A stretch of DNA of 64,000 nucleotides from a bacterium (GTDB taxonomy: Bacteria > Patescibacteriota > Minisyncoccia > Moranbacterales > DUUL01). The notes under the pieces were generated by a model, which had not been told where the DNA came from, searched no databases, and worked only from the letters and a program-made list of their open reading frames with translations. The DNA is taken from positions 81,288 to 145,287 of the forward strand of contig JABGXP010000014.1 of the NCBI GenBank assembly GCA_018675685.1, read 5' to 3'. Shown here piece after piece: positions 6,874 to 35,591 of the stretch. The position numbers were made by a program, and so were the translations under genes. Within the stretch, counting starts at the first letter, position 1. Each line of letters starts with the position of its first letter.

Positions 6874-8199
6874 ATGAACAAGTCAAAGAAAGCAAGATTT
6901 TTAGAGAAAGTATTGCGTTTAATGGCAATTTGTGTTTTATGGCGACATAAACCAAAAGTTGTTGCAATTACGGGAAGTGTTGGGAAAACTACAACAAAAG
7001 ACATGACCTGGAAATTGTTGGAGAAGTATTTCAATGTCAGGAGGAATATTAAGAACTATAATAATGAAATTGGCGTTCCATTGACTATCATCGGCGTGGA
7101 GTCTGGGGAGAGCTCAATGATCAAATGGTTTTTTGTTTTCCTGAGTTGGGTGGGTGTTATGTTTTCTAGGAAATATCCAGAGATTTTGGTCTTGGAAATG
7201 GGTGCTGACAAGCCAGGTGATATCAAATACCTTACTAGTTTTGTGCCTATTGAGGTTGGAGTTATAACAAACATTGGGATTTCTCATCTTGAAAATTTTA
7301 AAACAAAAAAAGCGGTAGCTGTGGAAAAGGGGCATCTCCTAAGAAGTGTCCCTGTGAATGGACTGGCGATTTTAAATAGCGATGATGCTGAATGTCAAAA
7401 ACTAGCCCCACAGCTTAAAACCAACGTAATTAAGTGCGGTTTTGAGGAGGGGGCGTCAATGCTTGGAAGCGATATTATTTATGGTTATCGCTCATTGGAA
7501 ACCAGAAGTGGGAAAAAGATTAAGTTAGTTAAGGGGATTTTATTTAAATTAAACTATCAAGGTAAGATTATCCCAATTAAACTGAAGCACGCACTAGGTT
7601 ACCCTCAAGTTTATGCAGCACTCAATGCATTTGCTGTGGCAGAATACTTTAAACTGAATAAGCTTGAAGCCGCGGAAGCATTGCAGGATTTTCTTCCTCC
7701 ACCAGGAAGAATGGTTTTAATGCCAGGTATTAAAAATTCGGCAGTGATTGACGATACTTACAATAGTGCTCCGGAAAGTCTGAATGCTTGCCTTGTTACG
7801 CTTGATAAAATAAAAGCCGAAAGGAAAATTGTCGTCTTAGGTGATATGTTGGAGCTTGGAGAAGAAGAGGAGAGCGCTCATCGAGAGGCAGGAAAAAAAG
7901 TTGCCGAGTTACAACCAGAATTCTTCGTTGCTGTTGGAAAAAGAATGAAATATGCAGCGATAGAGTACAGGAAAAACACCCAAGATAAGGATTCAATAGG
8001 ATGCTTTAGCTCCCCCAACGAAGCAATGATTTTCATTCAGCATACGCTGAAAGAAGGAGATGTGGTTTTAGTGAAAGGATCACAGGGAATGAGAATGGAA
8101 AAAATTGTTGAAGAAATTATGAGGCAACCAGAAAAGAAAAAAGAATTGCTAGTTAGACAGGATGACACTTGGCAAACAAAGGATTTTATAGCGCCATAG
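6874..8199 (+). CDS. murF: Mur ligase, most likely UDP-MurNAc-tripeptide--D-Ala-D-Ala ligase MurF
   Basis: ATP-binding VVAITGSVGKTTTKDM, a Mur-ligase central and C-terminal domain, and a C-terminus DVVLVKGSQGMRMEKIVEEI typical of MurF. It follows ftsI. Confidence 0.6.
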   Translation: MNKSKKARFLEKVLRLMAICVLWRHKPKVVAITGSVGKTTTKDMTWKLLEKYFNVRRNIKNYNNEIGVPLTIIGVESGESSMIKWFFVFLSWVGVMFSRKYPEILVLEMGADKPGDIKYLTSFVPIEVGVITNIGISHLENFKTKKAVAVEKGHLLRSVPVNGLAILNSDDAECQKLAPQLKTNVIKCGFEEGASMLGSDIIYGYRSLETRSGKKIKLVKGILFKLNYQGKIIPIKLKHALGYPQVYAALNAFAVAEYFKLNKLEAAEALQDFLPPPGRMVLMPGIKNSAVIDDTYNSAPESLNACLVTLDKIKAERKIVVLGDMLELGEEEESAHREAGKKVAELQPEFFVAVGKRMKYAAIEYRKNTQDKDSIGCFSSPNEAMIFIQHTLKEGDVVLVKGSQGMRMEKIVEEIMRQPEKKKELLVRQDDTWQTKDFIAP

Positions 8200-27950: not shown

Positions 27951-30650
27951 CTAAAGTGAGATCCTTAGAATATCACCATTTTTAGTGCTAATAAATGCTC
28001 GATCCTGTTTTTCATTGACCCAGAAGTGTTCAGCATCTATGAATTTTTCACTGAATTTTTTCACTGTCTCCGATTGATTGCTCTTTAAAATCTTCATAAG
28101 AACCCCGTTTTTTGAGTCCAAAGAATATATATTACTTGGTTGAGACCTAGTTTCGATATCGACAATTCTTGTCTCTTCATAATCATCATTTTTTGCAGAG
28201 AAAGAAGTTTTTAATTTTCCTTCAAAGTATTGTTGAATTTCTCCGTTTTCAGATGCCACCAAAAGTGAATCATCAACCGCTAAGTCAATTGCTGCTGAAA
28301 AGAATTGTTGGTTCGGTATCCTGATTTTATAATTATGAAAACCTCCTGGTTTGCGAGGAAATTGATAGATATTCTTTGAATTATTATCAAGAATATAAAG
28401 ATATTGGAGATAAACCCCAGCTCCTCCAATGGCAAGATTGTTAGGGAGTTTAATATCAACATCTGTAAAGCGATTTGTTACGGGGCTATAAGAAAAAACA
28501 CGCTTTTCTGAAATAAGGAAGACCAGTCTAAGGGTCGGCATAGATACAAGTGTTTTGGTTTCTTTCATATCATTCTTAAGAGGGACTTCTTTCAAATTAT
28601 TATTGGTGATGTCTAATCGGAAGAATTTTCCTGAAGCTGTGAGGATGAATAATTCGTCCTTATCTCCAGTTAAAGCTTTAATCTCCTCATTAACAGCTGC
28701 TATTGTTGTTGTTTCTGTCTCACTTTCGGAACCTCCTCTTTTTTGATCATTTATTATCTCGGTAGTTGAGGTTTCATTGAAAGCTTTATTTCCAATTAAT
28801 TTAGACAAAAATGAGAATAAGAAAATCAACGCCAAGAGAGAAATCGTGCCTATAAGAATTATTTTTTTGTATTTTCTTGTAAGCAAAACAAACTTTCTCT
28901 TGAGTCTCCCCAAATCTTTTTGTTTTGAGATTGCTATAACAGAGGTAATTGAACTCGTCATGGCATCTCGAAAAGAAGTTTTTATTTGTGTATCAGTTGG
29001 TTTTGTACTTTCGCTGGCAATGTTATTTCCCTTCCCGATTCTCTTCTCTCCAGAGACAAGAGAATTAATCTTAGCATGCATAGCTGTGTAGAGCTCCTTG
29101 ATTTTTTCTGTCAATTTAAGGAATATAGACTTTAGCTCATTCAGAATCCTTTGAAAATCAATTAAATCAAGTTTCTCTTTCACTTTTTTTAAATAGACGC
29201 CAATGGTTCTTCGAACACTCTTGGCTTGTTTTTCTTTAAATGTAGACTCTTCTTTTTTTCGTATCTCTCCATTTTTTACACGCATAAACTCTCTTTCTTT
29301 ACGAATCGTTTCTTTTTCTGCCTCCATTTTTTCTTGCTCCTCTAGTTCTTTCGATGGTTCAATGGGGTAGGATATGCTGTTATTGAAAGAGAGGTCTTTT
29401 ATGTTGTCATCTGATTTCCCAAGCTTAATTTTCGAAATTAAAGGGATTGAACTTGCTGAAATATTGTTATTTTTTTTCAAATCCTCAAGAGTTTTTTTGG
29501 CTTTATTTAAAATAGAATTAAAGCTCTTCTCATTGGTGTCGTCAATTTCCTTCATTTCAAGAACTTCTTTATTCCCATCAGCTTCTTTAATAAAAAGTTC
29601 CGGTTGCTCTTCAAACGGAGAAATAGGAGATGATCCCACAGTTTTGTTTTTTTGTTCCGTAGGCGCAGTTGGTTTGTTCGGAATATTCACTGCCCCTTTC
29701 TTTGCCTTTTTAGACAATTCTATTTCTCCGTCTCTTGTCTTTTTTGGTATTAATGAGGAGATTGGGGCCTCTGTCGTGATACTAACTTCTTTGTCTTTGG
29801 TATTTTTAGTCTCCTGTTCTATGTTTTTTAGTGAGCGGCATCTTTTGCCTAGAGAGGTCTTTGGAGTGAACGCTTCACTTTCTCCAAAAAAATTAAGCTT
29901 TGCGAGATCTTTTTCTTTTGGAGCCGAAGTCACGCTTTTCTCTTTGATGTTAGTGATAACAACCCCCACATCCTCTCCCTCTAAGTCCAAAGTTGATTTG
30001 AGAATATTATCAAATTCACTGGAAGTAAAGGTTTTTGTGTGGCGAGTGATTTCCTCCCAAGAAAGGGAGTCAAAAAGTTTCTTTGTTGAAAAAATAAGTT
30101 TATCTCCAATTGAGAGTTCACCATAAGAAATATCAGAAAATGTTTTCACAGGGTGCACGTTTTTTTCCTCATTTAACCCCTTTGATATTTCAGCAATTTT
30201 TTTATTCTTGGAGAGAAAAATTTGTCCATTCCCAAGCTTAGTAAAATGGAGTTCATTTCCGCTGATAACTCCAATAACAGCATCTAAATTATTGATCCAG
30301 TTTGTTATTTCATGTTGAGCAAGATCCTCTAATGCCAGGTTGATCTTATTAAGGGCACTTCCAAAACTTTCCTCTGTTCCCCTGTTTGGTTTTAAGAAGA
30401 ATTCTCGCTTAATCACCTGGGAAAGAAGATTCGGAAGATAGGCGGATCCTTCTGAGTTGTCATTACTTCTGATTATACCAAAAAGGTCTCCCAATTTACG
30501 TTGGGCTGGATTCTCTCCCTCAAAATGAAAAGTGTTTGAAAATGGTTGCAAAGCTTTATCTTTACAGACCGCCACCAAGAAGGAATCTAATTCAATTTCA
30601 ATTTTAGATTTTTTTTCTTTAATATTGTTGTGCATAGCAAAATATTTCAA
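27951..30650 (-). CDS. large (899 aa) membrane protein with an N-terminal cytoplasmic domain, a low-complexity/coiled-coil linker, one TM, and an extracytoplasmic beta-rich domain
   Basis: Long intact ORF with a TM at IILIGTISLLALIFLFSFL, a K/E-rich coiled-coil middle section, and a repetitive beta-strand-like C-terminus. Confidence 0.5.
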   Translation of the reverse strand: MKYFAMHNNIKEKKSKIEIELDSFLVAVCKDKALQPFSNTFHFEGENPAQRKLGDLFGIIRSNDNSEGSAYLPNLLSQVIKREFFLKPNRGTEESFGSALNKINLALEDLAQHEITNWINNLDAVIGVISGNELHFTKLGNGQIFLSKNKKIAEISKGLNEEKNVHPVKTFSDISYGELSIGDKLIFSTKKLFDSLSWEEITRHTKTFTSSEFDNILKSTLDLEGEDVGVVITNIKEKSVTSAPKEKDLAKLNFFGESEAFTPKTSLGKRCRSLKNIEQETKNTKDKEVSITTEAPISSLIPKKTRDGEIELSKKAKKGAVNIPNKPTAPTEQKNKTVGSSPISPFEEQPELFIKEADGNKEVLEMKEIDDTNEKSFNSILNKAKKTLEDLKKNNNISASSIPLISKIKLGKSDDNIKDLSFNNSISYPIEPSKELEEQEKMEAEKETIRKEREFMRVKNGEIRKKEESTFKEKQAKSVRRTIGVYLKKVKEKLDLIDFQRILNELKSIFLKLTEKIKELYTAMHAKINSLVSGEKRIGKGNNIASESTKPTDTQIKTSFRDAMTSSITSVIAISKQKDLGRLKRKFVLLTRKYKKIILIGTISLLALIFLFSFLSKLIGNKAFNETSTTEIINDQKRGGSESETETTTIAAVNEEIKALTGDKDELFILTASGKFFRLDITNNNLKEVPLKNDMKETKTLVSMPTLRLVFLISEKRVFSYSPVTNRFTDVDIKLPNNLAIGGAGVYLQYLYILDNNSKNIYQFPRKPGGFHNYKIRIPNQQFFSAAIDLAVDDSLLVASENGEIQQYFEGKLKTSFSAKNDDYEETRIVDIETRSQPSNIYSLDSKNGVLMKILKSNQSETVKKFSEKFIDAEHFWVNEKQDRAFISTKNGDILRISL

Positions 30651-30735: not shown

Positions 30736-30909
30736 ATGTTAAAGAATTTCAAAAAAGACGGTTTGCTAAATTTTAGCAAACCGTCTGTTCCAATTGAGAG
30801 TAAAATGTACAAGGTGGAACCTCCGATTGAATTAGAGTATTGCTCTGGGTGCACGTTTTTTCCAGTTCCATGGAAAAACGTTGAATTGGTCGCCAAACAT
30901 AATCATTAA
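30736..30909 (+). CDS. small (57 aa) hypothetical ORF with a CxxC pair
   Basis: An AAGAGGA Shine-Dalgarno lies 6 nt upstream of ATG 30736. It overlaps the minus-strand small ORF, so at most one of the two is likely real. Confidence 0.2.
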   Translation: MLKNFKKDGLLNFSKPSVPIESKMYKVEPPIELEYCSGCTFFPVPWKNVELVAKHNH

Positions 30910-31032
30910 TCCAGCAATAAATGTGGTGAAAAAACTGCAAATACAGCAAGAGGCAAGAAAAAGAGCCTCTCCAGTTCCGTGGCTACGGTTTGCTTGGCAA
31001 ATTTTTTCCAACGAAGGTTGATACTGTTCCAT
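30832..31032 (-). CDS. small (66 aa) membrane protein, hypothetical
   Basis: An AGGAG Shine-Dalgarno lies 7 nt upstream of the ATG, and there is a hydrophobic segment LFLASCCICSFFTTFIAGLMIMF. Its 3' end overlaps a plus-strand small ORF. Confidence 0.25.
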   Translation of the reverse strand: MEQYQPSLEKICQANRSHGTGEALFLASCCICSFFTTFIAGLMIMFGDQFNVFPWNWKKRAPRAIL

Positions 31033-31105
31033 AAGATATCTCCTCTTCTTTTGATTGAAAGAATCAAGCTATTAACAGTTTTAATTATATGCTAAGTAAA
31101 AAGAT

Positions 31106-31134
31106 TTGACAAATATTTGGAGCTGTCATACAAT
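31106..31134 (+). promoter_or_regulatory. hrcA operon promoter: TTGACA, 17 nt, TACAAT
   Basis: TTGACA at 31106-31111, 17-nt spacer, TACAAT at 31129-31134. Confidence 0.55.
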
Positions 31135-31187: not shown

Positions 31188-31958
31188 ATGCTTTCAGACA
31201 GACAAGGAAAAATTCTAGCGTTAATCGTTCAAGAGTACACAAGATCGGCAGTCCCAGTCAGCAGCTCTTCTATTATGAAGGCTTTTAGAGAAAATATTTC
31301 TTCAGCAACAATTCGAAATGAAATGTTCGAACTTGAGAGAATAGGGTTTCTATTGAAACCACATGTTTCAGCAGGTAGAACACCATCAGACGCTGGATAT
31401 CGATACTTTATTGACAATCTTTTGAAAAATCGCAAACTCACACAAGATGATCAAAAGACGTTGCAAGTCGAGATGCTAAAGTTGAAAGCGCAAAATACGA
31501 GACTTTCAAGAACTCTTGCAAAAACACTCTCAACAACATCAAGATGCATGGCTTTGTCAGGAATGATTGAAAAAAAGGACTATTATGATTTTGGAATGCA
31601 CACATTGATGGATGATCCAGAATTCAACGAACTCGATGAAGTTTCGCGAATTGCTGCCTCACTTGACGTGATTGATGAGAAAATGGAGAAACTTCTAGAC
31701 CACCTAGAAGACGGAGAAATAAGAATATTCATCGGAGAAGAGAATCCAATTGAAGAGATTCGTAAATGTTCCATGATTATTTCACCATATCGACTGGAAA
31801 ACGGTGAACGAGGAGTCTTGGCGATTATTGGCCCTAAAAGGATGGAATATGGAAAGAACAAGAATTTAATTGATTTTGTAAGTGGATTCTTCAGTAATAA
31901 AAGCACAAAAGCTTTCTTCATAACAGCGACAACAGCGAATTTAGTTAACTTAATTTAG
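31188..31958 (+). CDS. hrcA: heat-inducible transcription repressor HrcA
   Basis: N-terminal winged helix (ILALIVQEYTRSAVPVSSSSI...SSATIRNEMFELERIGFL) and the HrcA C-terminal domain. A CIRCE operator lies upstream and grpE/dnaK downstream. Confidence 0.85.
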   Translation: MLSDRQGKILALIVQEYTRSAVPVSSSSIMKAFRENISSATIRNEMFELERIGFLLKPHVSAGRTPSDAGYRYFIDNLLKNRKLTQDDQKTLQVEMLKLKAQNTRLSRTLAKTLSTTSRCMALSGMIEKKDYYDFGMHTLMDDPEFNELDEVSRIAASLDVIDEKMEKLLDHLEDGEIRIFIGEENPIEEIRKCSMIISPYRLENGERGVLAIIGPKRMEYGKNKNLIDFVSGFFSNKSTKAFFITATTANLVNLI

Positions 31959-32023: not shown

Positions 32024-32956
32024 ATGATGAACTTAGGGAGAAAAATTAAAAATAAGCAACAAACCGAAGATAAGATGAAAAAAGATAATTTTGATTTTGA
32101 AAACAGTAGTATACGACCGATGGCAATTACAGTGAAGATTGTAGTTTTAAACTCCGATCAGAAAGTTCTTCTCTTAAAAAGGAGCAAAAAGTCTTTGAAT
32201 CCGAAGAAATGGGACTTGCCGGGTGGGCATATCGACGAAGGAGAGTCTATAGAAGAAACAATCAAGAGAGAGGTCTTGGAAGAAACAGGGCTTTCTGTAG
32301 AGATTGGGCCAATCATCAACGTAGTTGAGTTTGCCAAGGATCACAAGGCATTTAAAGAGGAAAAAAGAGGTTTGCGATATATTGCACTAACAACTGATAC
32401 GGAAGTTGTACTAAACGAGGACGAGCATTCAGAATTCAAATGGCTTTCCTTTGATGAAGCAATTGCTAGCTTGGAAGACAAGGGGTTTGAAGGGGAGAAA
32501 AAACAAACCATCAAAGAAGCGAAAAATCGAATGGAACTCGAAAAATCATTAAATGGTTGGCACAGAACACTAGCCGAGTTTGATAATTTTAAAAAGAGAA
32601 CTGAAAAATCAAATGATGAATTCCGAAAATTTTGCCTCGAAAACTTTATCATGGAACTTTTACCAGTAATTGACAACTTTGAAATGGCAACGCAGCATAT
32701 TCCGACAGAACAACAGGAAGAGGGATGGGTTGTGGGCGTGATGCATATTAAAAATCAACTACTTGGAGTTTTGGAGGCTAATGGAGTGACAGAAGTTCCC
32801 ACCGCAAAAGGAGATGATGTAAATGAATCGATCCATGAGATACTGAAAGCTTCAGAAAAAAAAGATGGTGAAGGCGGAAAGGTTAAGAAGGTTTTGAAGA
32901 AGGGGTATCAAATCGAAAAGCGGATAATTCGACCAGCGACCATTGAAGTAGAATGA
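32024..32956 (+). CDS. grpE: fusion protein: N-terminal Nudix hydrolase domain plus C-terminal GrpE nucleotide-exchange factor
   Basis: A perfect Nudix box GGHIDEGESIEETIKREVLEETGL (Gx5Ex7REUxEExGU) at residues ~67-90. From residue ~165 the GrpE core appears: AEFDNFKKRTEK...LLPVIDNFEMA...GVMHIKNQLLGVLEANGVTEV...GYQIEKRIIRPATIEV. The reading frame is uninterrupted. Confidence 0.8.
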   Translation: MMNLGRKIKNKQQTEDKMKKDNFDFENSSIRPMAITVKIVVLNSDQKVLLLKRSKKSLNPKKWDLPGGHIDEGESIEETIKREVLEETGLSVEIGPIINVVEFAKDHKAFKEEKRGLRYIALTTDTEVVLNEDEHSEFKWLSFDEAIASLEDKGFEGEKKQTIKEAKNRMELEKSLNGWHRTLAEFDNFKKRTEKSNDEFRKFCLENFIMELLPVIDNFEMATQHIPTEQQEEGWVVGVMHIKNQLLGVLEANGVTEVPTAKGDDVNESIHEILKASEKKDGEGGKVKKVLKKGYQIEKRIIRPATIEVE

Positions 32957-33105
32957 TAAGTTGCATTGAAATGAAAGACGAATAAATAGTTTGAGTGCAT
33001 ATCTTGGTGATATTTCTTGTCGCCAAGGATATGGATTTAAAATAAGGGAGGGACAACCCCTGTAAAAATAGATCCAATTTTAATAAGTTAAGTGAAAATA
33101 AAGTT

Positions 33106-35049
33106 ATGGGAAAAATCCTAGGAATCGATTTAGGAACAACCAACTCTGCGATGGCTATCGTGGAAGGCGGAACTCCTGAGATCGTAGAAAACAAAGAAGG
33201 GAACAGAACAACTCCTTCAGTAGTCGCGATTAATAAAGGTGGTGAAAGATTAGTAGGTCTTTTAGCAAAAAGGCAAGCTGTGACAAATCATGAGAATACA
33301 ATCTATTCAGCAAAACGTTTGATTGGGCGAAAGTTTTCAGATGCAGAGGTAAAGGAAACTGCTACAAAACTTCCTTTTAAAATTACTTCAGGTAAAAATG
33401 AAGCCGTTAATATCACAATGAACGGAAAAGCATACCGACCAGCTGAAATTTCAGCAATGGTTTTGCAGAAATTAAAAGCTGATGCAGAGGAAAAACTCGG
33501 AGAAAAAATCGAAGAAGCTGTGATTACAGTTCCTGCATATTTTGACGATGCTCAAAGAAAAGCGACAAAAGATGCTGGAGAAATTGCTGGGCTCAAGGTG
33601 ATGCGAATCATCAATGAACCAACAGCTGCAGCACTTGCGTATGGTTTTAACAAGAAAAAAGACGAAAAAATTGCTGTCTATGATCTTGGAGGAGGAACTT
33701 TCGATATTTCAATTTTGGAAGTTGCTGAAGACACTGTGGAAGTTAAAGCTACAAATGGTGATACTTATCTTGGTGGAGATGATTTTGATGAAAAAATCAT
33801 AACTTGGATTCTAGATGAATTCAAGAAAGCAGAAGGAATTGATCTTTCAAAAGATCCACTTGCTCTTCAGAGAATCAAAGAATCTGCTGAGAAAGCGAAA
33901 ATTGAACTTTCAACAGCACAAGAAAGTGAAATCAACCAACCATTTATCACTTCAGGTGATGATGGACCAAAACATCTTGTGATGAAAATTTCAAGAGCTA
34001 AATTGGAAGAACTAGTAGGAGATTTAGTAGACAAAACACTTGAACCAGTGAAAAAGGCATTGGCTGACGCAAAATTCAAAGCAGCTGATATCAATGAAAT
34101 TGTGATGGTTGGAGGAATGACAAGAATGCCATTGGTTTTGAAGAGAGTAGAAGAATTCTTTGGAAAGAAACCATCGACCAGTGTTAATCCAGATGAAGTT
34201 GTGGCAATGGGTGCTGCAATTCAGGGTGGAGTTCTTCAAGGCGATGTCAAAGATGTATTGTTACTTGATGTGACACCACTTACTCTTGGAATTGAAACAA
34301 TGGGTGGAGTTTTAACACCACTTATTGAACGAAATACTACAATTCCAACAACAAAGTCACAAATATTTTCAACTGCAGCTGATAATCAACCTGGTGTTGA
34401 AATTCATGTTTTGCAGGGTGAACGAAAAATGGCTGCAGACAGCAAACCACTTGGAAGATTTATGTTGGATGGAATTCCACCAGCACCAAGAGGAGTGCCA
34501 CAAGTTGAAGTTTCTTTCGACATCGATGCAAATGGAATCTTGAATGTAAAAGCAATTGACAAAGCAACAAATAAAGAGCAATCAATTCGTATTGAAGCTT
34601 CAAGCGGAATGTCTGAGGAAGAGATTGAGAAAATGAAAAAGGATGCTGAACTGCATGCTGAAGAAGACAAAAAGAAAGCTGAGGAAATTGAAATAAAGAA
34701 CACAGCTGATGCAATCGTTCATTCGACCGAAAAAACTTTTAAAGAGGTTGGAGACAAGATTTCTGATGACAAGAAAAAACCAGTTGAAGAAAAGCTTGAA
34801 GCCTTGAAAAAAATAAAAGATGGTGATGACTTTGAGGCAATCAAAAAAGCTTCTGAAGAGCTTTCAACTGAGGCTCAGAAAATTGGCGAAGAGATGTATA
34901 AAGCAGCTCAAGAAGCAGAAGCAGCTAAAGCAGCACCTGAAGGAGAAGAGAAAAAAGAAGAGGGTGATGTAAAAGAGGCTGAAGTTGAAGAAAAAGAAGA
35001 AGAAAAGAAGGAAGAGAAGAAAGACGAAAAAGAAGAAGAAAAGAAATAG
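33106..35049 (+). CDS. dnaK: molecular chaperone DnaK (Hsp70) with a K/E-rich C-terminal tail
   Basis: GIDLGTTNS and all Hsp70 signatures are present. The C-terminus ends [20 protein letters not shown]. Confidence 0.95.
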
Positions 35050-35285: not shown

Positions 35286-35591
35286 ATGAACCAAAACCAA
35301 CAACCCCAAGCGGGTCAACAACAAATCCAGATCAAAGCCAATGATGAGGATTTGAAGGGGAAGTATTCAAACACAGTCCAGATGATGCACACTAAAGAGG
35401 AATTTGTTTTAGATTTTTTGAATATCTTCCCTCCAACAGGCACACTCAATTCACGTGTGATTGTTTCTCCTTCACATTTCAAAAGAATGACTGCTGCAAT
35501 GAGCGACAATTTGAAGAAATATGAAGAGAAGTTCGGAAAGATCAAGGACGTGAAAGGGGAGGAAAGTGGAAAAATGGGATTTGTGGGATAG
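35286..35591 (+). CDS. small conserved hypothetical protein (resembles the DUF3467 family)
   Basis: 101-aa ORF with a Q/N-rich N-terminus. The core motif SNTVQMMHTKEEFVLDFLNIFPP recalls DUF3467 proteins; this comes from memory of the family, not from a search. Confidence 0.35.
   Translation: MNQNQQPQAGQQQIQIKANDEDLKGKYSNTVQMMHTKEEFVLDFLNIFPPTGTLNSRVIVSPSHFKRMTAAMSDNLKKYEEKFGKIKDVKGEESGKMGFVG

Follow-up and report, generated by a model that had tools for sequence, protein, structure and literature searches.

The bacterial DNA analyzed here (64,000 nucleotides of contig JABGXP010000014.1, lineage Patescibacteriota, Moranbacterales, DUUL01; this whole 64-kb stretch is referred to as the window) encodes, between hrcA and dnaK, a protein in which a Nudix hydrolase domain is fused to the N-terminus of GrpE, the nucleotide-exchange factor of the chaperone DnaK. 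The Nudix-GrpE architecture is a real, family-wide feature of Patescibacteria, in which the Nudix domain stands in place of the pseudo-substrate tail of GrpE. The explanation favored here, with a chance somewhat better than even, is that the protein is bifunctional, combining a normal GrpE exchange factor with an active, heat-shock-induced Nudix pyrophosphohydrolase and with a suggested extra role at the substrate-binding domain (SBD) of DnaK. No published description of a Nudix-GrpE fusion was found in a full-text literature search, and the fusions with a taxon name are annotated only as "nucleotide exchange factor GrpE" or "molecular chaperone GrpE," names that hide the enzyme domain of these proteins.

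Domain composition and predicted structure

The original prediction, made from the letters of the window, had described a Nudix-GrpE fusion in one 310-amino-acid (aa) open reading frame (ORF), and the frame is indeed uninterrupted with both domains significant in Pfam. NUDIX (PF00293) is matched strongly at residues 35–153 (E = 2.6e-25; 89.4 bits against a cutoff of 21.1), and GrpE (PF01025) at residues 158–309 (E = 2.5e-36; 125.3 bits against a cutoff of 25.8), the latter match being near-complete over profile positions 15–163 of 165. The Nudix box, which had been called textbook, is present and complete from G68 to L90 (Table 1). None of the NCBIfam GrpE equivalog models (PRK14140 and others) is reached, with a best score of 97.2 bits against 137, and this shortfall reflects divergence rather than a missing GrpE domain, the models being clade-specific and full-length. 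GC content and GC content at third codon positions (GC3) show no notable difference between the Nudix and GrpE halves, and the window therefore carries no compositional sign of recent acquisition.

In the AlphaFold2 model of the fusion (mean predicted local distance difference test score, pLDDT, 88.6), a Nudix fold at residues 34–150 is followed by a four-residue turn, a continuous helix at 154–224 (pLDDT >90), a helix at 234–252, and strands at 255–309, with pLDDT mostly above 90. The C-terminal helix of the Nudix domain leads into the tip of the GrpE long helix through a 4–5 residue connector, and the connector motif GFExEK (G154 F155 E156 x E158 K159) is conserved. Foldseek matched the Nudix part to more than 600 Nudix chains, of which the best was 3grn (E = 2.6e-11; template modeling (TM) score 0.75, normalized to the target). 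By alignment to E. coli GrpE (1dkg), a fusion residue equals the E. coli residue plus 117, which places the helix start at residue 154 near E. coli residue 37, the start of the ordered long helix in GrpE. Because the helix begins at about that residue and runs from 154 to 224 unbroken, the long helix is retained. The earlier claim that a "disordered/long-helix thermosensor" had been replaced thus stands for the disordered tail of roughly 35 residues and fails for the long helix, which is intact in both the 1dkg alignment and the AlphaFold2 model.

The residues through which GrpE touches DnaK, defined here after the published interface (PMC12915176), are conserved in the fusion. The SBD-contact stretch of E. 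coli GrpE (L63–R75) corresponds to fusion residues 180–192, in or beside which W179, R181, A184, D185, N188, K190, and R192 are near-invariant, and the E. coli I91–D110 contact region is also conserved, as LLPVIDNF; both motifs lie within residues 154–224. Further DnaK-contact equivalents are kept (F86→F203, G122→G238, R183→R300, and R186→R303), with G238 (E. coli G122, the site of grpE280), G263, and G294 invariant and R303 near-invariant. The DnaK encoded in the window likewise retains NTTIPT and FDIDA, through which the SBD contacts the coiled-coil.

Distribution of the fusion and its locus

The search of relatives for the same fusion, which the original prediction had proposed, yielded 272 Nudix-GrpE proteins, comprising 261 with a single Nudix domain, 10 with tandem double Nudix domains, and one with another layout. 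A word-indexed search produced ∼96 clusters (90% identity) in which both Pfam domains occur. HMMER, run exhaustively against 1.84 billion representatives, contributed another 68 fusion representatives (50% identity), and a profile search started from divergent members brought in roughly a hundred more fusions. The homologues come from NCBI, JGI, ENA, and Logan, the longest fusion-bearing contigs measure 1.13, 1.18, 1.29, and 1.55 Mb, and all fusions with a taxon name belong to Patescibacteria (Moranbacteria/Moraniibacteriota, Pacebacteria, and Parcubacteria).

That a missed stop codon, a frameshift, or a chimeric assembly had joined two genes can be given next to no credence, since the same architecture recurs in independent assemblies. 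Apart from the uninterrupted ORF and the family-wide recurrence, including contigs of 1.13–1.55 Mb, a separate short ENA contig (P0001) encodes an identical 247-aa N-terminus that spans the domain junction, and in UBA2772 (L001) residues 2–309 are matched in a single 927-nt stretch (309 codons) with no frame break. A scan of genome contigs with the single protein returned mostly ordinary GrpEs, through the AEFDNFKK motif, and one fusion, that of UBA2772. No split nudix and grpE gene pair was present at any locus examined.

The predicted hrcA-grpE-dnaK operon was recovered by profile matches to hrcA upstream and dnaK downstream, and the arrangement recurs: in all nine fusion loci retrieved (L081–L083, L089–L093, and the window) the fusion gene lies directly 3′ of hrcA, and dnaK follows whenever the contig is long enough to show it. 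At the genome level, L090 (77% identity) is the closest relative, and it shares with the window the gene order TPP (thiamine pyrophosphate) enzyme-RmuC-888-aa ORF-hrcA-fusion-dnaK-DUF3467, and Moranbacteria with an unfused GrpE at the orthologous locus have the order cysS-corA-yidD-hrcA-grpE-dnaK. A neighbor-joining tree of the 150-column GrpE domain implies 23 changes between fused and unfused states, a tree judged too poor for counts of gains and losses.

Loss of the pseudo-substrate tail

In E. coli, nuclear magnetic resonance (NMR) data place the GrpE tail in the canonical substrate groove of DnaK, bound through a Glu-flanked 17-IIM-19 motif that the authors call highly conserved in bacteria (PMC12915176). 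In a separate study, removal of the disordered tail blocks substrate release (PMC10803776). A Glu-flanked aliphatic run in the tail occurs in 25 of 91 unfused GrpEs vs. 4 of 266 fusions. The tails of the fusions are Lys-rich, with a median length of 15 aa, and the N-terminal tail of the window protein, a region of 26% mean pairwise identity, has no acidic IIM-like motif. Unfused Moranbacteria GrpEs at the orthologous locus carry a tail with EEEIVVEQ.

Published GrpE-DnaK geometry (PMC10803776) would place the Nudix domain next to the docking site on the DnaK SBD. Judged from the length of the helix, the Nudix domain would lie ∼75 Å (∼50 helical residues) from the β-domain that opens the nucleotide cleft, and direct processing of DnaK's own ADP is unlikely for this reason. 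The earlier suggestion that the domain might clean up nucleotides locally, at the nucleotide site of DnaK, is therefore geometrically improbable.

Variation within the Nudix module

The Nudix box has been lost in a subclade comprising P0142, P0336, P0337, P0360, P0363, P0366, and P0367 (for example, SKDIGKE for REUxEE). When near-identical pairs and the outlier P0174 are left out, the N-domains of these proteins are 50–77% identical with zero gaps and their GrpE halves 66–85% identical. P0142 occupies the same operon slot, scores just under the Pfam NUDIX threshold, and is predicted by AlphaFold2 to adopt a Nudix-like fold (pLDDT 88.2). The spacing between the two domains is also constrained: in 216 of 227 fusions, W140 and AEFDNFKK are 40–45 aa apart, with modes at 40/41 and 44/45. 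These modes differ by one helical turn, as they would if the domain had to keep its orientation on the helix.

The module itself can be exchanged for another Nudix domain. In P0297 and P0344, the GrpE halves are 94% identical and the Nudix halves 28%, and the module-exchange pairs in general combine 87–94% GrpE identity with 28–30% Nudix identity. For the 284 pairs whose GrpE halves are at least 75% identical, the distribution of Nudix identity has two modes, with 91 pairs at 20–40%, 12 at 40–50%, and 181 at 50% or more. The one exchange documented at the DNA level is that between L093 and L092, which are 87% identical through the 3′ end of hrcA and the intergenic region, share no similarity over ∼410 bp of Nudix coding sequence, and are 94% identical from about codon 141 through GrpE into dnaK. 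Both exchanged modules are true Nudix domains, each with its own relatives on GrpE backbones of 70–96% identity. Since related genomes have swapped the domain in this cassette-like manner for a different Nudix domain, a Nudix module at the N-terminus of GrpE appears to be selected. Over the family, the Nudix and GrpE halves co-diverge moderately (r = 0.52, a value that none of 300 Mantel permutations attained). When the Nudix halves were clustered by single linkage at 42%, almost all merged into one chain, and no module types were defined.

The ten double-Nudix-GrpE proteins occur in two arrangements and are plausible intermediates for module exchange. A standalone Nudix gene in L081 is only 26–32% identical to the fused modules and for that reason is not an obvious donor. 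The nearest relatives of the fused Nudix domain without GrpE are tandem Nudix-Nudix proteins and one Nudix-Nudix-Nudix protein (P0178, P0208, P0210, P0215, P0251, P0253, P0189, P0221, P0100, and P0102), which suggests a tendency toward tandem duplication in this Nudix lineage.

Catalysis and substrate of the Nudix domain

Of the 272 proteins, 229 (84%) retain all six signature residues (G68, E74, R82, E83, E86, and E87), 243 (89%) retain the Glu triad, and every one has W140. Among 90 close fusions, the Nudix and GrpE halves are equally conserved, at ∼50% mean pairwise identity each. The domain would be expected to be an active hydrolase, because both the signature and the pattern of conservation fit one, and its hydrolytic activity would be tied to heat shock, because the gene lies under predicted CIRCE (controlling inverted repeat of chaperone expression) control.

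The substrate class was sought with NCBIfam, a PDB sequence search, and Foldseek, all of which proved uninformative. The structures 3i7u, 4mpo, 1vc8, and 5cfi (ApnA hydrolases) are among many Nudix matches with equal scores, and in the PDB and Foldseek searches hydrolases of diadenosine tetraphosphate (Ap4A) and Ap6A, NUDT15, plant NUDX1 (AtNUDX1), NudC, and others score alike. Residues downstream of the Nudix box that mark substrate specificity (Pro for ADP-ribose pyrophosphatases and Tyr for ApnA hydrolases) were not relied on, as their register is uncertain. The original prediction had offered ADP-ribose, Ap4A, or 8-oxo-dGTP as possible signals; Ap4A is a reasonable candidate, in a general sense only. 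Two reviews describe its accumulation during stress, its photo-crosslinking to DnaK, GroEL, and ClpB, and the heat sensitivity of apaH mutants (Johnstone and Farr, 1991, cited through PMC7705103 and PMC10148737); the specificity of Ap4A binding is doubted by the reviewers themselves (PMC7705103; PMC10148737).

Proposed mechanism and alternative explanations

In the bifunctional reading, the fusion would serve as the GrpE of the organism, the nucleotide-exchange factor of DnaK, with the disordered acidic pseudo-substrate tail replaced by a folded MutT-like Nudix domain. The protein would dimerize like GrpE and carry out the usual ADP-for-ATP exchange on DnaK, and the dimer would display two Nudix domains beside the SBD, where the canonical tail competes with clients. 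The Nudix domain of the window protein would be an active, heat-shock-induced hydrolase of a nucleoside-diphosphate-X compound and, besides hydrolysis, would most plausibly modulate client release or SBD dynamics instead of the lost tail. A role for the Nudix fold inside the DnaK-GrpE complex is suggested because variants with a dead box keep the fold, because connector lengths preserve the helical phase, and because the module has been replaced only by other Nudix modules.

Several observations weigh against this reading. No characterized Nudix subfamily model among the NCBIfam equivalogs comes near its cutoff (for example, MutT 8-oxo-dGTPase TIGR00586, 39.9 against 97.9; RppH PRK00714, 39.5 against 116; and NudB PRK09438, 50.4 against 103), and the best solved Nudix relative, the M. 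mazei "MutT related protein" 3grn, is 30% identical and uncharacterized. Related GrpEs carry other N-terminal additions, namely DUF3850 (PF12961), DUF1653 (PF07866), a Cys-rich tail, and two further unassigned domains of ∼110–140 aa, one of them with a GS...DxD-like motif (additions of these kinds are found on P0249, P0376, P0166, P0235, and P0175), and in this clade the N-terminus of GrpE is a favored site of domain accretion. Many unfused Patescibacteria GrpEs are nearly tailless, and some Moranbacteria have an ordinary GrpE at the orthologous locus whose GrpE half is ∼70% identical to that of the nearest fused protein. The other additions, the nearly tailless proteins, and the ordinary GrpEs fit a permissive attachment point at the N-terminus and a Nudix domain that is not indispensable.

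The main rival draws on these same observations and, while decidedly the less probable of the two, is a possibility to be taken seriously: a house-cleaning Nudix enzyme (MutT-like or Ap4A-hydrolase-like) would have been fused to GrpE in reduced genomes, acquiring heat-shock regulation and fixed stoichiometry, with the halves independent and the Nudix domain without effect on DnaK. The Nudix domain is of a generic kind, its catalytic residues are mostly intact, unrelated domains (DUF3850 and DUF1653) on the GrpE N-terminus suggest a permissive site, a plain GrpE occupies the same locus in some relatives, and other standalone Nudix genes are present in these genomes (L081). A fusion of that kind, however, sits uneasily with the subclade in which the catalytic box is lost and yet the N-domain is conserved, gap-free, and confidently folded, with a connector that is short, conserved, and quantized by the helical turn rather than a variable flexible linker, and with a module that, where replaced, is always replaced by another Nudix domain. 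The retention of the fold without catalysis, together with the rigid, phase-preserving connector, a location adjoining the docking site of the SBD, and the loss of the pseudo-substrate tail, would also suit a ligand-gated co-chaperone, in which the Nudix domain is mainly a sensor and hydrolysis a timer, so that a bound stress nucleotide, Ap4A for instance, would change how the coiled-coil or the SBD interacts and thereby adjust client release by DnaK. The reviews add the photo-crosslinking of Ap4A to DnaK, GroEL, and ClpB and the heat sensitivity of apaH mutants (PMC7705103; PMC10148737). We consider this proposal unlikely, given that the catalytic residues are conserved in 84–89% of the family, as is typical of enzymes and not of sensors, and that the swapped modules are only ∼28–32% identical, which argues against one conserved specific ligand. 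The same low estimate applies to its boldest form, in which the Nudix domain is an exchangeable nucleotide-sensing and nucleotide-hydrolyzing head in the role of the pseudo-substrate tail, placed against the SBD, its ligand state (for instance, a dinucleoside polyphosphate of heat or oxidative stress such as Ap4A) gating client release.

The sharp, cassette-like exchange between near-identical loci and the several alternative N-domains in the clade also recall a variable head shaped by conflict, in which the module would diversify under phage or host-symbiont targeting of GrpE or DnaK and the Nudix domain would destroy a nucleotide-based effector or signal. A weak similarity to the PADLOC candidate family PDC-S07 points the same way (window Nudix, P0321, and P0297, with E = 3.9e-17 to 6e-10). 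Such a history is very improbable, however, because the PADLOC match is probably a generic Nudix similarity to an unvalidated candidate and was rejected as evidence of a defense role, the gene sits in a core heat-shock operon with no defense genes nearby, and only one exchange is documented at the DNA level. The bifunctional protein, with normal nucleotide exchange, heat-shock-induced hydrolysis, and a suggested role at the SBD, remains the explanation that we prefer.

Other features of the window and related loci

The coordinates of the fusion gene, its domains, and the surrounding operon are given in Table 1. The fusion gene carries the features of an HrcA/CIRCE regulon, namely hrcA and a CIRCE immediately 3′ of the TTGACA-17-TACAAT promoter, and regulation by HrcA is predicted on this basis. 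The near-consensus CIRCE of the original prediction was found again with its one mismatch, and it is the single match within the window, where 0.02 would be expected by chance. Neither a second grpE nor a close copy of the fused Nudix domain is present in the window, and Rfam and tRNA scans of the window gave no matches.

Table 1. Positions in the window of the Nudix-GrpE gene, its predicted parts, and the neighboring operon features.
Feature	Position	Strand	Evidence
Sigma-70-like promoter, TTGACA-17 nt-TACAAT	31106..31134	+	Consensus match only, 11/12 positions
CIRCE operator (predicted HrcA site), TTAGCAGTC-N9-GAGTGCTAA	31139..31165	+	1 mismatch to consensus
hrcA, short 256-aa form	31188..31958	+	PF01628, E = 5.5e-24; TIGR00331, 199.4 bits vs. 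cutoff 197.2
Nudix-GrpE fusion gene, 310 aa plus stop	32024..32956	+	Single ORF, ATG start, 0 internal stops
Lys-rich disordered N-tail, residues 1–33	32024..32122	+	pLDDT <50 at residues 1–3 and 8–25; poorly conserved
Nudix domain, residues 34–153, α/β/α fold	32123..32482	+	PF00293; AlphaFold2 pLDDT 91–98; Foldseek
Nudix box, G68-x5-E74-x7-R82-E83-V-x-E86-E87-x-G89-L90, complete (GX5EX7REUXEEXGU)	32225..32293	+	Read from sequence
Connector and GrpE long helix into first bundle helix, residues 154–224	32483..32695	+	AlphaFold2; alignment to 1dkg, 4ani, and 3a6m
Rest of GrpE four-helix bundle and C-terminal β-domain, residues 225–310	32696..32953	+	AlphaFold2; structure alignment
dnaK, 647 aa, partner chaperone	33106..35049	+	PF00012, E = 8.7e-256

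HrcA is short across the clade, at 220–257 aa in the window, L081, L082, L083, L086, and L089 against the 338-position TIGR00331 model, and the TIGR00331 match of the window HrcA is split into two stretches and barely exceeds its cutoff. Upstream of hrcA, an 899-aa ORF without a Pfam match (27951–30650, minus strand) is divergent from the hrcA operon, and its position is kept in L090, where it measures 888 aa. Between them, a 66-aa ORF on the minus strand (30832–31032), with a GAGGAG Shine-Dalgarno-like sequence 5′ of it, and a divergent promoter TTGTCA-17-TATAAT (31084–31112, minus strand; 11/12 positions), which overlaps the hrcA promoter, were observed. This ORF may encode a small hydrophobic protein, and its transcription would run back-to-back with that of the heat-shock operon.

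Downstream of the fusion gene, L090 has an HSP20 gene (6984–7433 of that contig) between the fusion gene and dnaK, where the window has instead a 149-bp spacer (32957–33105) with a short GC-rich, hairpin-like element at ∼33045–33061. The C-terminal tail of DnaK (window 34900–35049) is extremely Glu/Lys-rich and of low complexity. A DUF3467 gene (window 35286–35591, plus strand) lies 3′ of dnaK, an order also present in L090. L081, too, has a DUF3467 gene, a few kb downstream and beside a gene with a RelA_SpoT domain. The DUF3467 gene may be part of the same stress locus.

Significance and comparison with known systems

GrpE is among the most architecturally uniform of co-chaperones, and what its tail does, namely drive client release as a pseudo-substrate, was settled only in 2024–2026; the proteins described here form a large natural family in which that tail has given way to an enzyme domain. 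Controls come with the family: relatives at the syntenic locus whose tail is normal, variants with a dead box, proteins with a double Nudix domain, and one GrpE backbone that bears either of two non-homologous Nudix modules. With these, it can be tested whether a folded domain is tolerated or used beside the DnaK SBD, whether client release by Hsp70 can be coupled to small-molecule chemistry, and whether the old link between stress dinucleotides and DnaK has a physical basis. If the ligand-gated proposal were true, an alarmone would be wired directly into the Hsp70 cycle and cassette exchange would retune the nucleotide that is sensed; if the halves are independent, the protein is a tidy but ordinary Rosetta-stone fusion.

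Among GrpE homologues, the organellar proteins Mge1, GrpEL1/2, and CGE1 also have a plastic N-terminal region that is used for regulation, although their N-termini consist of targeting peptides, extended coiled-coils, or redox-sensitive residues and not of enzyme domains. Small MutT-like Nudix hydrolases (3grn; NUDT15 and AtNUDX1; 3i7u, 4mpo, and 1vc8) share the box, the fold, and the size of ∼120 aa with the fused domain, but they are free-standing, whereas the fused domain runs on within ∼4 residues into the GrpE coiled-coil. The Nudix domain of NrtR (3gz8), which is non-catalytic and regulatory, is a structural match to the fused Nudix domain, and its situation resembles that of the dead-box subclade (P0142 and relatives), in which the fold is kept and the box lost. 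Unlike NrtR, the window protein and 84% of the family keep the catalytic residues, and no DNA-binding partner domain is attached. Canonical GrpE (E. coli 1dkg, G. kaustophilus 4ani, and M. tuberculosis 8gb3) has the same long helix, four-helix bundle, and β-domain, the same contact residues and LLPVxDNF motif, and the same hrcA-grpE-dnaK position under CIRCE. It differs from the fusion at the N-terminus, where canonical GrpE has a disordered acidic tail of 33–44 residues with a Glu-flanked IIM-type motif, and the fusion, which is without that motif, has a folded Nudix domain of 120 residues preceded by a short Lys-rich tail.

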